32,108 nt of DNA from an uncultured Nitrososphaerota archaeon (lineage in GTDB: Archaea; Thermoproteota; Methanomethylicia; Nezhaarchaeales; WYZ-LMO8), in assembly GCA_964586135.1 (NCBI GenBank), contig CAZPGS010000003.1, forward strand, positions 5,780-37,887. Direction: 5' to 3'. The notes under the pieces were generated by a model that did not search any database, had not been told where the DNA came from, and worked only from the letters and a program-made list of their open reading frames with translations. Below, piece after piece: positions 7,675 to 32,108 of the stretch; the first letter of the stretch is position 1, and every line of letters begins with the position of its first letter. Made by a program: the position numbers and the translations under genes.

Positions 7675-8960
7675 CTGATAATCCCGTACCCTATAAGCCT
7701 AAACCTTCCAGATATCTGGCGGCTTATCGCTACTCTAGTCCTCGGCTCCGCGCACACCGGCCTACGTAGCCTCACCGAGACCACGTCTTTAGAGGCCTTA
7801 GCGACAGCCCCCAATGTCGTGGCAGTGCCAACGTTTATCATTAAGACCTCGCCGGTCCTTATGCTCTCGACCTTAACCATGTCCACGGTCCCTACGGCCC
7901 TTTCGAATAACACTACTTCTAAGTCGAGGTCAAAGAGCGTTGGGGGGAGCGTCCCAGGCTTGCCCACGACGCTGCCGGCTAGGGAGTCCGATTTTGTGAG
8001 CGAAGGATCGAGAAGCGTGCCGAAGCCTATCAACCCTCCAGGTCTCGCCTCTTCCACTTCCACGTCGCCCGCCTTCAAGCTTACAACTTGAGTGTACAGC
8101 GGCTCATACTCGACCTTTCCGCCTCCCTTCTCCAACCTAATGCCGGGTCTTATCTCGATCTCATCGCCCGTTCTAGCAACACCCTGAATTATAGAACCCC
8201 CTAAAACCCCGCCCTTCAATTCCTCGGGCGTCGTTCCAGGCTTATTGACGTCGAAGGACCTAGCTATTAATGCTCTCAAAGGCTTCGTCGGGTCTCTCTT
8301 CGGGGTCGGAATGACTTTCTCTATGGTCTCTATCAAGACGTCGAGATTTGCCTTATGGAGAGCCGATATCGGAATTATCGGCGCATCCCTATACATGGTG
8401 TCCTTCAAGAACTCTCTTATTTGACGATAGTTCTCAACGACTTTATCTTTAGGAGCGACTTCTATTTTATTCTGCACCACCACCACGTTCTTGATGCCCA
8501 ATATTTCGAGGGCCTTTAGGTGTTCTCGCGTTTGGGGTTGAGGACATGGAACCGTAGCATCAATTACCAATATGGCTCCGTCGAATAGAGTAGCCCCTGC
8601 GAGCATCGTAGCCATCAGCATGTCACGTTGCACGCCCGTTTACGGGCGTGCAATCTCGTGTCCGGGGCAGTCTACGAATGAGTACTTTCTCAAAAACTCG
8701 AGCCTAGACCCGCAGTACTTGCACGTGGTCCCCGATAGCACGTAAGTTGTGTAGCACCGCGGAGGCGGGCACTTGGGGCACTTTAATACCGCAGTGTCGG
8801 CGTAGCCCAGCCTAAGCGTTATCCCCCTCTTTAACTCTTCAGAGTGCCTCGAAGCCCACACGCCCGAGAGGGCCCACGTCAAGGTAGTCTTACCGTGATC
8901 CACGTGACCCGTCGTGCCTATGTTCAGCTCAGCTTGCCTCTTCATCTGCTCCTCGGCCAC
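7671..8960 (-). CDS. eif2g: Translation initiation factor aIF2 gamma, intron-split: join(8960..8655, 8621..7671), 418 aa after splicing
   Basis: Exon 1 has [22 protein letters not shown], a zinc knuckle and DCPGHE. Exon 2 has [22 protein letters not shown] and RSFDVNKPG. Removing 33 nt restores DCPGHEMLMATML. Confidence 0.95.
8622..8654 (-). other. Putative 33-nt BHB-type mRNA intron in aIF2gamma
   Basis: Minus strand: CACG-AG^A-[TTGCACGCCCG TAAA CGGGCGTGCAA]-CGTG-AC^A. 4-bp central helix CACG/CGTG, 3-nt bulges, perfect 11-bp stem, in-frame TAA in the loop. Outer exon helix is weak. Confidence 0.88.
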
Positions 8961-9388: not shown

Positions 9389-11206
9389 CTATCTGCCAGC
9401 AGCCCTCTTTATCTTGGCAATTTCGTCTATGAGTTCTAGTTCTTCCTTTGAGAGTTGGTCGAGGAACTTCTCCTTCAATATTCTTGCATGTTCTGTTGGC
9501 ACGTCGACGTATAGGTAATCGCCCTCGTCGATGTGCCTGCCGACGATCACGTTCCCCCTGATAGAGATCGCTACGGCCTGTCCCGCCACGGCCTCGCTCA
9601 AGCTCTTTTTCTGCTCTTGTATTTGCATTATCACTCCGAGCCTTCTGCCCTTGGCGCTCATCAACGGGTACCCAGGCCTTAGCCTTCCAGCCAGTATTTC
9701 GACCCCAACTATCGCTGGGTCGCTCCTCCTGAATACGTAGCCCTTTAGAATACGGGCCTTCCCGGGCAAGGTTAGAGAGGACAGCGTCTGCCTACGATCT
9801 TCTTCCATTTTCTTCTTGACCCAGTCCAAGTAGTCCTCCACCAACCTGTAAATGACGTTGTTCCTAAACATTGGTATGCCTCTACTCTCTATCTCCTGCT
9901 CCGCGTCGGGGTTTGCACCGACATTGAACGCCAAGATAACGCCGTGGTAGGGGTCCTTCTCTTTAGTTATCGCGGCTTCGACGACGTCTCTCTTCGATAC
10001 CTTCCCAACGTCGGCCAGCCTCACCGACACGCCCAGCCCCTGTAGCTTCGAAACTAAAGCCTCAAGGGAACCTAGGGTATCGGCTTTAACCACCACTCCT
10101 ACCGCGTCCGTCGTTATCCTGATCTTTGAGAGCTCCTCTGCAACCCTTCTTACTGCCTCCTCGATCTCAGCTTGGCTCCTCGCTGAGAAGAAGGGGCTAC
10201 CAGCCACGGCATCGTCTAGGCCCTGGGCGACTATTCTCACACCAGCAGCCGCGACGACCTCGTCCACGCTCTTGAACTTGTCCTCTGGATCCCTCATCTC
10301 ATCCATGGGCTTGGGCATCAGTATGCTCCTAATTTTGGTCACTATGGGGCCTTTAAGCCCGCCGAGCACTATCGTGTCGTCCTTTCCCAGCACGCCATCG
10401 TAAATTATCACGTCTGCGACGTTGCCTAGGCCTAGAACCTCTCTGCACTCCAGCACCACGCCTTTAGCCGCCGACTCCTCGACGTAGAGCCTCTTTAACA
10501 TGTACCTCTGAGAGAGACCGGCTAAGACAAGCAGGAGGTCAGGTATGCCCTCTCCCGTCTTAGCGCTCGTGGGTATCACGGCCACGGTTCTGGTGAAGTC
10601 CCTTATCCTGTCATACCTGTCGGCTTGAAATCCAAGCTCCTCAAACTTAGCCACGATGTTGTAGATGAGCTCGTCGAGCCTCCTCTGGACCTGAGGTTGT
10701 TGCGACTTTATCGTCTCGACGAACGGCTTAAACTCGTTCTTAACCCACCCGGGTATTTTGTCTATCTTGTTTGCGGCGACGACAAAGGGCGTCTTCCTAG
10801 CTTTTAAGATCTCTAAGCTCTCGTAGGTTATCTCTTCAAAACCTTCGAGGATGTCTATGACCAAGATGGCCACGTCGGCTATTGAGCCGCCTCTCTTCCT
10901 CAAGTTCACGAAGGCCTCGTGCCCTGGGGTGTCTATGACCAAAAAGCCGGGTATCTTAATCTCAACCTTTATGTTCTTGAGTAAGGGACCGCACATCCTC
11001 TCAAGAGCAGACCAAGGCAAGAAGGAAGCTCCAATGTGCTGGGTTTGCCACGTAGCGCCGAGCGGGCGCTACATCATGGCCCCGACTTCTCTAAACATGA
11101 TCGCAGTGCCCCTGATCTTGTCGAGGAGGAGGGTCTTCCCCACGTCTACGTGTCCCAATACACATAGGATGGGCGACCTGATTCTCTTGCCCTCACCGCC
11201 GTCCAC
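9389..11206 (-). CDS. infB: Translation initiation factor aIF5B (IF-2), intron-split: join(11206..11075, 11044..9389), about 595 aa after splicing
   Basis: Exon 1 has [29 protein letters not shown]. Exon 2 has [28 protein letters not shown] and [13 protein letters not shown] start at 11206 follows GGAGGTGA. Confidence 0.95.
11045..11074 (-). other. Putative 30-nt BHB mRNA intron in aIF5B
   Basis: Minus strand: GGG-GCCA-TG^A-[TGTAGCGCC CGCTC GGCGCTACG]-TGGC-AA^A-CCC. Complete BHB with outer helix GGG/CCC, central helix GCCA/TGGC and a 9-bp intron stem; in-frame TAG inside. Confidence 0.92.
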
Positions 11207-30631: not shown

Positions 30632-30742
30632 TGCGGGGGGTGGGATTCGAACCCACGAAGGCCTGCGCCACGGGATTTCCCATCCGGCCTCGAGCAAGAG
30701 AGATCTTAAGTCCCGCCCCTTTGTCCGCTCGGGAACCCCCGC
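30632..30742 (-). tRNA. tRNA-Leu(TAA) with 28-nt intron at position 37/38 (30677-30704)
   Basis: GCGGGGG/CCCCCGC acceptor stem, CGGGA-CTTAAG^intron^A-TCCCG, long variable arm, GTGGG-TTCGAAT-CCCAC. BHB: CTTA/TGGG helix with bulges AGA and AAA. Confidence 0.95.
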
Positions 30743-30831: not shown

Positions 30832-31921
30832 GTGCGGCCTTTGAAGTTCTTCGAGGCTAGGAGCGTGGAATGGAGGGGTGGAGTTGTTAGGCTCATAGAC
30901 CAGAACGCCTTGCCCTGGGAGCTACGCTACGTGGAGTGCAGAAGCCCCGAAGAGGTCGCGAGGGCCGTGAAGGACATGACCGTGAGAGGGGCCCCGGCAA
31001 TAGGAGTCGCTGCAGCCATGGGGATAGCGCTCGCGGCCTACCACTCCAACGCTAGGGACTTAGAAGCGCTTCTGAGGGACGTAGAGAAGGCGGCTCAAGT
31101 GCTGTCCAAGGCTAGGCCGACGGCGAGGAACCTCTTTTGGGCCATTGAGAGGATGACGAGCACCATCAGGAGGGCTCCGAGCCTTGAGGAGGCCAAGAGG
31201 ATCGCCGTGGAGGAGGCCGTCAGGATGGCGGACGAGGACGTGGGGGTAAACAAGAGGATAGGCGAGATAGGCGCCTCCCTGATAGAGGACGGCGACACGA
31301 TACTGACCCACTGCAAACAGCTGGGCTGAGCAACCCGGCTGGCAGATCGCGGGAGCGCTGGCTACCGTAGGGTACGGCACAGCCCTAGGCGTAATTAGGA
31401 GCGCAGTGGCGCAAGGGAAGAGGATAAGGGTCATAGCGACTGAGACGAGGCCGAGGCTACAAGGGGCGAAGCTGACGGTGTACGAGCTCAAGAGGGACGG
31501 GATAGACGTGACGCTCATAACTGACAACATGGTCGGCTACGTCATGAGCCAAGGAATGGTGGACAAGGCCGTCGTGGGGGCCGATAGGGTATTGAGGGAC
31601 GGGCACGTGGTCAACAAGGTAGGGACGCTGACCATAGCCATCGTGGCCAGCAGGTACTCGGTGCCCTTCTACGTCGCGGCGCCCTCTTCTACCTTCGACT
31701 TGAGCTCGAGAGTCGAGGACGTGGTGATAGAGCAGAGGGACCCGAGAGAGGTGCTGGAGGTTAATGAGAGGCCGATAACGATAGACGTGGAGGTCCTCAA
31801 CCCCGCCTTCGACGTAACGCCGCCCGACTTGGTGACCGCGATAATAACGGAGAGGGGCATAATAAGGCCTCCGTACCACGAGAACATACCCAAGACGATG
31901 GCGAGGGCGACAAACGTTTAA
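30832..31921 (+). CDS. mtnA: Methylthioribose-1-phosphate isomerase (eIF2B-related family), intron-split: join(30832..31316, 31348..31921), 352 aa after splicing
   Basis: DQNALP, VRGAPAIG, RPTARNL, TILTHC|NAGALATVGYGTA, ETRPRLQGAKLT, VGADR, NKVGT, NPAFDVTP. Confidence 0.92.
31317..31347 (+). other. Putative 31-nt BHB-type mRNA intron in mtnA
   Basis: CTGC-AA^A-[CAGCTGGG CTGAGCAA CCCGGCTG]-GCAG-AT^C. Central helix CTGC/GCAG, 8-bp stem, TGA in the loop, frameshifting. Removal gives TGC AAC GCG (C-N-A). Confidence 0.88.
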
Positions 31922-32054: not shown

Positions 32055-32108
32055 GCGGCCGTCGTCTAGCCTGGACTAGGACACCAGCCTTCCACGCTGG
32101 CGACCCGG
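32055..32108 (+). tRNA. tRNA-Gly(TCC), truncated by window end
   Basis: GCGGCCG TC GTCTAGCCTGGACTAGGAC, anticodon arm CCAGC-CTTCCAC-GCTGG; close paralogue of the tRNA-Gly(GCC) at 27940. Confidence 0.93.

Follow-up and report, generated by a model that had tools for sequence, protein, structure and literature searches.

Introns of the tRNA type have been confirmed in the protein-coding genes of Archaea for cbf5 and for one haloarchaeal messenger RNA (PMC10485636; here and below, what is taken from a paper cited by accession refers to the parts of its text that were available). The pre-mRNA intron of the cbf5 gene of Crenarchaeota was the subject of studies by Watanabe in 2002, Yoshinari in 2006 and Yokobori in 2009 (PMC2738675). 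Most cbf5 introns are reported to possess a relaxed bulge-helix-bulge (BHB) motif, in which the cuts lie after base two of the bulge and before base three, and the available part of the same paper states that, as of 2009, confirmation for genes other than cbf5 was lacking (PMC2738675). The other case, the HVO_1309 mRNA of Haloferax volcanii, is a substrate of the archaeal tRNA splicing endonuclease (PMC7714728, PMC10485636) and is counted as one of only two archaeal genes spliced in this way (PMC10485636). Here we report on a stretch of 32,108 nucleotides (nt) from an uncultured archaeon of hot environments in the lineage Ca. Nezhaarchaeales, hereafter called the window, to which all coordinates refer unless otherwise stated. 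In this window a gene for a protein similar to the isomerase MtnA is interrupted by an insert of 31 nt at positions 31317..31347 of the plus strand. We consider it highly probable that this insert is a relaxed BHB pre-mRNA intron of the archaeal endonuclease type, which would be removed from the transcript by cleavage and ligation.

The candidate intron resembles the cbf5 introns in several respects. It is short (25-32 nt for the MtnA intron in its various versions, compared with 16-44 bp for cbf5), its motif is of the relaxed or 'unconventional' kind with the predicted cuts between the second and third bulge bases, its lengths include both multiples and non-multiples of three, and a hetero-oligomeric EndA, the tRNA splicing endonuclease, is likely to be associated with it. 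It also lies in or beside the codon of a catalytic residue, so that the protein would be inactive unless the RNA is spliced (PMC2738675). It differs from them in its host, which is a metabolic isomerase of the IF-2B/MtnA family and not a pseudouridine synthase, and in its lineage, Nezhaarchaeales as opposed to Sulfolobales or Desulfurococcales; moreover, cbf5 splicing was shown by complementary DNA (cDNA) and enzyme assays (PMC2738675), whereas the MtnA intron is predicted from sequence. Like the HVO_1309 message, the MtnA-like transcript would be an mRNA on which the archaeal tRNA splicing endonuclease acts, but the host of HVO_1309 is a euryarchaeon with a homodimeric enzyme (PMC7714728, PMC10485636).

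A central 4-bp helix, one 3-nt bulge, an inner helix and a second cut without an outer helix are likewise features of the non-canonical introns of archaeal tRNAs. The relaxed BHB motifs of tRNA introns were reportedly given the names HBh' and hBH by Marck and Grosjean in 2003. A two-subunit EndA is needed for relaxed motifs of this kind in tRNA introns (PMC5829648). In the present case, unlike in these introns, the host is an mRNA and the exon strand of the helix consists of His and Cys codons. The removal of a short, frame-changing mRNA intron by protein enzymes is further known from the splicing of HAC1/XBP1 by IRE1 and tRNA ligase or RtcB, where a tRNA-type ligase joins the exons and the unspliced message gives a different, truncated product (PMC13149111). 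There, however, the endonuclease is IRE1 and stress regulation is established (PMC13149111), whereas here the endonuclease would be EndA and stress regulation is speculation. Our literature search, the coverage of which did not include supplements and subscription journals, returned no account of introns in Nezhaarchaeota or in any MtnA/IF-2B gene. To judge from the comparisons given below, the MtnA intron would be a new and well-supported case of a very small known class, found in a metabolic isomerase gene and in a different lineage.

The interruption can be read directly from the window. The sequence runs ACC CAC TGC AA up to position 31316, continues with the 31-nt insert (31317..31347, +) and resumes with C GCG GGA GCG; the insert is thus located between AA and C of the Asn codon in the Thr-His-Cys-Asn (THCN) motif of the MtnA-like gene (Pfam IF-2B). 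In the list of open reading frames (ORFs), the upstream ORF (30832..31329) closes at an in-frame TGA within the insert and the downstream half lies in a different frame. Exon 1 (30832..31316, +) has its predicted start at GTG 30832, the first start codon of the open frame, ends with ACC CAC TGC AA, and could be matched to the structure 5yfj_A up to residue 135. Exon 2 (31348..31921, +) begins with the last base of the Asn codon, continues with the peptide AGALATVGYGT..., contains a GADR motif and has 190 open codons before the stop TAA at 31919..31921.

The two halves match adjacent parts of the same models. For Pfam IF-2B (cut-off 22.4 bits), the N-terminal half covers positions 2-114 with 79.7 bits and the C-terminal half positions 117-280 with 215.1 bits. 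For the NCBIfam model NF004326, the S-methyl-5-thioribose-1-phosphate isomerase subfamily, the halves cover positions 10-165 and 167-355, and the entries 1t5o_A and 1t9k_A of the PDB are matched at residues 3-154 and 156-339, and at residues 6-156 and 158-343, respectively. The matches to NF004326 and to the two structures mean that exactly one residue, the Asn, is absent between the halves. When 31317..31347 is removed, the codon becomes AAC, i.e. Asn, and the motif reads Thr-His-Cys-Asn as in the intron-less orthologues. The initial annotation of this DNA had proposed an insert of this length and position, which splits the Asn codon and changes the frame; the sequence and the ORF list prove it correct in all these points. 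It had also claimed that removal of the 31 nt predicted from the BHB motif restores THCN, and indeed the halves then match their Pfam, NCBIfam and PDB relatives without a gap.

The MFE (minimum free energy) fold of positions 31311..31348 agrees with a splice-site structure and consists of a 4-bp CUGC/GCAG helix, a 3-nt AAA bulge, an 8-bp stem and an 8-nt loop. The central helix is formed by the exon bases CUGC (31311..31314, +) and the bases GCAG of the intron (31342..31345, +), and was obtained both in the MFE folds and by RNAalifold. The 5' bulge AAA (31315..31317, +), which contains the predicted cut 31316/31317, is invariant in 15 of 15 sequences (described below). The inner stem, given by the folds and by an anchored pair count, is made up of the 5' strand CAGCUGGG (31318..31325, +) and the 3' strand CCCGGCUG (31334..31341, +), and the hairpin loop CUGAGCAA (31326..31333, +) between them holds the in-frame UGA at 31327..31329 that closes the unspliced frame. 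The 3' 'bulge' AUC (31346..31348, +), with the predicted cut 31347/31348, ends in C31348, the third base of the Asn codon, and has no conserved outer helix. The 38-nt core has a folding energy of -18.8 kcal/mol and a z-score of -3.65, and none of 200 shuffled sequences folded as well.

The position of the cuts was predicted independently of the protein. When the rule of the cbf5 introns was applied, by which each of the two strands is cut two bases beyond the central helix in the 3' direction, the cuts fell at 31316/31317 and 31347/31348, which is the junction given by homology; and a custom scan for BHB geometry, in which protein information was unused, returned 31317..31347 exactly. We looked for an outer exon-exon helix in the alignment of the 15 sequences and by RNAalifold, and found none. 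Since the outer helix is absent, the motif belongs to the relaxed form.

To place the insert among related genes, 41 genomes were searched, namely the window's own genome (G000) and 40 relatives. The gene is present in nine of the ten genomes of the window's family (f1; G000 included) and is interrupted at the same codon position in all nine, with open frames of 188-225 amino acids (aa) around exon 2; the tenth f1 genome, G004, which is 75% complete, gave no match to the gene. The 30 matching genomes of seven other families all have open frames of 339-408 aa. In tblastn searches with both halves, the halves were separated by 30-35 nt at the nine loci of the family, and they were one codon apart, with a plain AAY codon, at all 21 loci of the other families.

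Pattern scans of public genomes and metagenomes were also performed; 6 of the 11 genome hits and 8 of the 23 metagenome hits were dropped as being outside an IF-2B context, bacterial or other, which left 15 distinct sequences from genomes and metagenomes. Their inserts are 25, 27, 29, 30, 31 or 32 nt in length, and the flanking peptides LTHC and AGALATVG are constant across these lengths. As all three residues modulo 3 occur among the lengths, no single frameshift would serve all variants. In 15 of 15 sequences the 3' cut is followed by C or U, and the restored codon is therefore always AAY, which encodes Asn. When the insert is read through, an in-frame stop is met at codon 5 or 6 in every one of the 15 variants, though their loops differ.

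Full-length relatives were sought by comparing exon 2 with the proteins of at least 334 aa in a library of 5.8 billion proteins, from which the best 8000 candidates by shared words were scored. The best full-length protein among these candidates is 72% identical to exon 2 and is thus not a member of the family. The f1 members are 79-95% identical by tblastn with both halves, and 80-95% identical in the search of the 41 genomes, and exist only as split frames, and no uninterrupted allele of a close relative was found among the 8000 candidates. In a tree of the spliced products, the f1 sequences form one clade with 100/100 support, beside which stands a divergent pair of metagenome sequences (L044 and L064) with a 25-nt intron; the intron-less families f2 and f3 fall within the same order-level clade as f1 (98/98). 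One gain or loss of the intron suffices in 82% of the bootstrap trees, the branch uniting the intron bearers being weak (77/45).

The structure was then compared across the 15 sequences. In the MAFFT alignment (A1), 99.5% of the 183 pair cells are standard pairs, as against 18-48% in a control in which the 3' partners were slid by 1-3 columns, and RNAalifold found the central helix, the bulge and the base of the stem unaided. CUGC/GCAG is paired in all 15 sequences by Watson-Crick or G-U pairs. Position 1 of this helix never varies, and positions 2, 3 and 4 show wobble changes only (U-A to U-G, G-C to G-U and C-G to U-G, respectively). It is not unexpected that the changes in the central helix are limited to wobbles, because one of its strands consists of the His and Cys codons.

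In the inner stem, the first five positions pair in 15 of 15 sequences, the stem is longer in most of them, and three positions show more than one type of Watson-Crick pair. For these positions an anchored count was made, with the stem fixed on its two conserved ends, which avoids the misplacement of the 3' strand by MAFFT in the 25-nt variants; this misplacement hides one G-C to C-G flip from the alignment pair count and from RNAalifold. In the anchored count, position 6 is G-C in 10 sequences, C-G in 3 and G-U in 1; position 7 is G-C in 8, U-A in 3, A-U in 2 and G-U in 1; and position 8 is G-C in 11 and U-A in 3.

Selection on the two exons was estimated as dN/dS (the ratio of nonsynonymous to synonymous substitution rates) by the Nei-Gojobori method on codon alignments, using the pairs with a finite dS above 0.05; the remaining pairs, which involve distant members, were saturated at synonymous sites. 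The median was 0.109 for exon 1 (41 of 91 pairs; maximum 0.39) and 0.073 for exon 2 (59 of 105 pairs; maximum 0.15). Wherever a sequence is not cut short by a contig edge, both exons stay open up to a proper stop, and other stops or frameshifts do not occur. By these codon comparisons both exons are under strong purifying selection, and the low dN/dS together with the open exons indicates that the gene was kept functional through a long divergence while interrupted. The initial annotation had pointed to decay of this copy as something that orthologues might reveal. The orthologues, with inserts of 25-32 nt at the same codon in 9 of 9 cases and dN/dS of about 0.1, argue strongly against it.

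The identity of the host protein was examined with family models and solved structures. Against NF004326 (cut-off 271 bits), the N-terminal half scores 163.8 bits and the C-terminal half 265.7 bits, the summed value of 429.5 bits being a rough sum only. The corresponding values for TIGR00512 are 141.6 and 236.2 bits (cut-off 279), and for TIGR00524 the C-terminal half alone reaches 262.3 bits against a cut-off of 185.85. MtnA models are the best-scoring ones for both halves, and the nearest solved structures are MtnA-like proteins. The GADR motif in exon 2 aligns with the GADR of 1t5o_A. In the MtnA of B. subtilis, the catalytic residues are Cys160 and Asp240; as a literature search gave nothing relevant to this numbering, the residues of an isomerase from P. 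horikoshii (PMC5789824) are used below.

The Cys that closes exon 1 aligns with residue 135 of 5yfj_A, the ribose-1,5-bisphosphate (R15P) isomerase of P. horikoshii. Cys135 and Asp204 are named as the catalytic residues of that enzyme (PMC5789824), which bears out the statement of the initial annotation that the Cys of THCN is catalytic. At the position of the catalytic Cys, eIF2B-alpha has Ala or Gly (PMC5789824). As the Cys is without a counterpart in eIF2B-alpha, an enzyme is favoured over a factor, and on these alignments the predicted product belongs to the isomerase type within the family and not to the regulatory-subunit type. A second MtnA-like gene is intact in the same genome; it is located on contig C30 as a frame of 354 aa and scores 275.6 bits against the NF004326 cut-off of 271.

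Genes for the enzymes that would be needed are found in the lineage. The EndA of the window's genome is a frame of 197 aa with both domains (72 bits for PF01974 and 47.8 bits for PF02778). Two EndA genes, of 180-220 aa and with scores of about 105 and 75 bits, are present in each of four relatives which are 93-96% complete (G003, G005, G006 and G009); this number fits a two-subunit (alpha-beta)2 enzyme. A two-subunit EndA cleaves non-canonical introns (PMC5829648), and the two-subunit or hetero-oligomeric enzyme has been linked to relaxed motifs and to cbf5 splicing (PMC5829648, PMC2738675). The ligase RtcB is present in full length (Pfam positions 1-426) in four of the five relatives searched, and the fifth, G008, which is 67% complete, gave no match.

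The interpretation of 31317..31347 as a relaxed BHB intron is therefore favoured by the agreement of the cut rule with the homology junction, by the site-specific conservation with free variation in length, by the strong purifying selection on both exons, and by the fact that the same lineage has both the machinery and sister introns (see below). According to this interpretation, the splicing would proceed as follows. In the last six exon bases before the cut, CUGC AA, the CUGC would pair with GCAG at the 3' end of the intron to give the 4-bp central helix, on which the 8-bp hairpin of the intron would stack after the 3-nt bulge. EndA would cut either strand two bases 3' of the central helix, and RtcB would ligate the exons, which would create the AAC codon for Asn beside the catalytic Cys and yield a single enzyme of about 350 residues. 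On an unspliced mRNA, translation would end at the UGA of the hairpin loop.

Several observations weigh against this interpretation. In an 86-nt context the same core is predicted, but the z-score is -1.52 and 16 of 200 shuffled sequences fold as well. Where the 3' bulge would have to be closed, each of the 15 sequences has A opposite G and C opposite C, so that a strict BHB is not formed; this is in accordance with the initial annotation, which had described the outer helix as imperfect. Changes on both sides of a pair were detected at one pair only in the MAFFT alignment and at none by RNAalifold, and in a shuffle control the observed percentage of paired cells was reached in 84 of 500 shuffles and the covariation score in 47 of 500. 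The shuffle control is low in power because most stem columns are invariant, and our case for the structure is built on the slid control and the anchored count and not on the shuffles. In addition, the 15 sequences are related and do not agree independently of one another, a search for RNA sequencing runs listed none, and the best 8000 candidates of the protein library included no full-length protein of a cDNA-like kind. As to the enzymes, a second EndA subunit was not found in the window's genome (85% complete, 113 contigs), and the RtcB frame of this genome (L067 1498..2712, minus strand, contig C23; 404 aa) shows no match to Pfam RtcB before position 86. The apparent in-frame lack of about 85 positions in this RtcB could be due to a collapse in the assembly or a deletion in the strain, or could have a stranger cause.

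Other explanations of the interruption have to be weighed. The gene might be a split gene, the two halves of which are translated on their own and then combine into an active enzyme with no RNA splicing; this would be in line with the conservation of both halves under purifying selection and with the clean end of the unspliced frame at the loop stop. We regard this as very unlikely, for exon 2 does not open with a start codon, the earliest in the ORF list being GTG 31406, 19 codons downstream, and yet the peptide that begins at the junction, AGALATVGYGT..., is conserved in the intron-less orthologues as well as in all 15 sequences. Separate translation would also cost the THCN motif its Asn and place a KQLG tail beside the catalytic Cys, and it leaves the conservation of the exon-intron helix and the exact BHB register unexplained. 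The hairpin directly 3' of the break might alternatively serve a translational recoding, either a programmed frameshift or a bypassing ('hopping') of the ribosome over the insert, and it should be noted that, in gene prediction, cbf5 introns were at one time confused with frameshifting (PMC2738675). The lengths of 25-32 nt, however, bring the halves into all three frame relations, so that no fixed +1 or -1 shift works, and all 15 variants have the in-frame stop at codon 5-6. Take-off and landing codons that match each other were not seen in the sequence, and a read-through would add about 8-10 residues beside the catalytic Cys and delete the conserved Asn; recoding is accordingly judged to be highly improbable.

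The intact paralogue on contig C30, and the fact that all data come from metagenome-assembled genomes, could be taken to mean that the interrupted gene is broken, as a pseudogene or as an artefact of assembly, and that the paralogue does the work. Against this, the same interruption occurs in independent assemblies, comprising nine genomes and 15 metagenome contigs with the proper protein context, dN/dS is about 0.07-0.11 for both exons without other stops or frameshifts, and the halves of the interrupted gene, by the rough sum of their NF004326 scores, exceed the score of the paralogue. We consider a broken gene to be extremely unlikely.

Returning to the relaxed BHB intron, the case in MtnA is one of at least five such introns that are clustered in a single small genome. 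In the window itself, the gene for aIF2-gamma carries a 33-nt BHB-type insert at 8622..8654 (-), which separates the DCPGHE codons from the MLMATM codons, with the layout of a CACG helix, a bulge divided as AG/A, an 11-bp stem, CGUG, and AC/A. All 10 f1 genomes have an insert at this site (31-35 nt), all 4 loci of the family f3 lack it, and the aIF2-gamma frames are at least 413 aa in all other families. The gene for aIF5B has a 30-nt BHB-type insert at 11045..11074 (-), between EVGAM and TQHIGA. It is found in 10 of 10 f1 genomes and at 4 of 4 f3 loci, the stem sequence being almost wholly different and the pairing kept (strong covariation), as well as in G010 of family f2 and in G016 and G019 of family f5, which are complete genomes and have 27 nt at this site; it is absent from G023 (f7). 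The aIF5B intron spans at least four families of the class and seems to be older and more widespread than the MtnA intron.

Two more inserts lie on other contigs of the same genome. The uS5 gene has a 30-nt BHB-type insert at G000:C9:5876-5905 (+), which is L070 1077..1106, and its exon 2 begins at position 17 of the Pfam Ribosomal_S5 N domain. The open frames of uS5 are 143-150 aa in f1 (10 of 10) and in f3 (4 of 4) versus 203-228 aa elsewhere, and these lengths suggest that the insert is common to f1 and f3. The cbf5 gene carries a 21-nt in-frame insert (L087 1691..1711, contig C11), read as GLR-stop-GRG, between GGTL and DPKV; its helix is CCCU/GGGG, its inner stem has 4 bp, and it lies after letter one and before letter two of the catalytic Asp codon. 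This codon position is the classical site of the crenarchaeal cbf5 intron (PMC2738675). The inserts of aIF2-gamma, aIF5B and uS5 are 30-33 nt in this genome and share the geometry of the MtnA insert. The suggestion of the initial annotation that all hosts belong to initiation-factor-related families does not hold, as such introns occur in uS5 and cbf5 of the same genome too.

All five inserts are located in codons of highly conserved motifs, each with an early in-frame stop. These stops are to be read with caution, since the genome-wide scan of G000, which looked for BHB motifs that merge open frames, required early termination and has the stop observation partly built in for the four inserts that it detected; only the MtnA series and cbf5 are free of this bias. 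For stems of 5-7 bp the scan gave 166 hits, compared with 156 and 154 when the 3' cut was shifted by 1 or 2 nt, i.e. no discrimination, whereas for stems of at least 8 bp and lengths of at most 35 nt it gave 5 hits compared with 1 and 1 in the shifted controls. As the scan missed the cbf5 insert with its 4-bp stem, the count of inserted genes is a lower bound. Hits on contigs C28, C2 and C66 were dropped for being without protein-like flanks (the one on C28 is among the five long-stem hits), and those on C4, C6 and C44 were dropped for their resemblance to hairpins between adjacent genes.

With these cases the lineage appears to be unusually rich in introns of this kind, and its transcripts would offer natural mRNA substrates for the two-subunit EndA. 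Gene callers split or truncate such genes. Since, among the library candidates scored, a full-length protein is absent for every close relative, metabolic reconstructions and marker-gene sets for these archaea would be wrong. The repeated placement in active-site codons provides a testable clue to the gain and retention of the introns. One may ask whether, in Nezhaarchaeales and their kin, the introns in aIF2-gamma (G3 motif), aIF5B (switch I), uS5, Cbf5 (catalytic Asp) and the MtnA-like gene (catalytic Cys) are not neutral passengers but a regulon gated by EndA/RtcB, as a counterpart of HAC1/XBP1. We think this rather unlikely; if it were true, the activity of EndA/RtcB would gate the output of active translation machinery and of the MtnA-like isomerase.

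Two observations on tRNA genes were made in the same part of the window. The tRNA gene at 30632..30742 (-) has a long variable arm, its anticodon loop holds an insert of about 30 nt, and its anticodon was read as UAA (Leu); it was missed by ARAGORN and by the Rfam gathering run and scored 41.9 bits in E-value mode. At about 32055..32108 (+), where no tool made a call, the last approximately 50 bases of the window resemble the 5' portion of a tRNA gene which would continue beyond the window.

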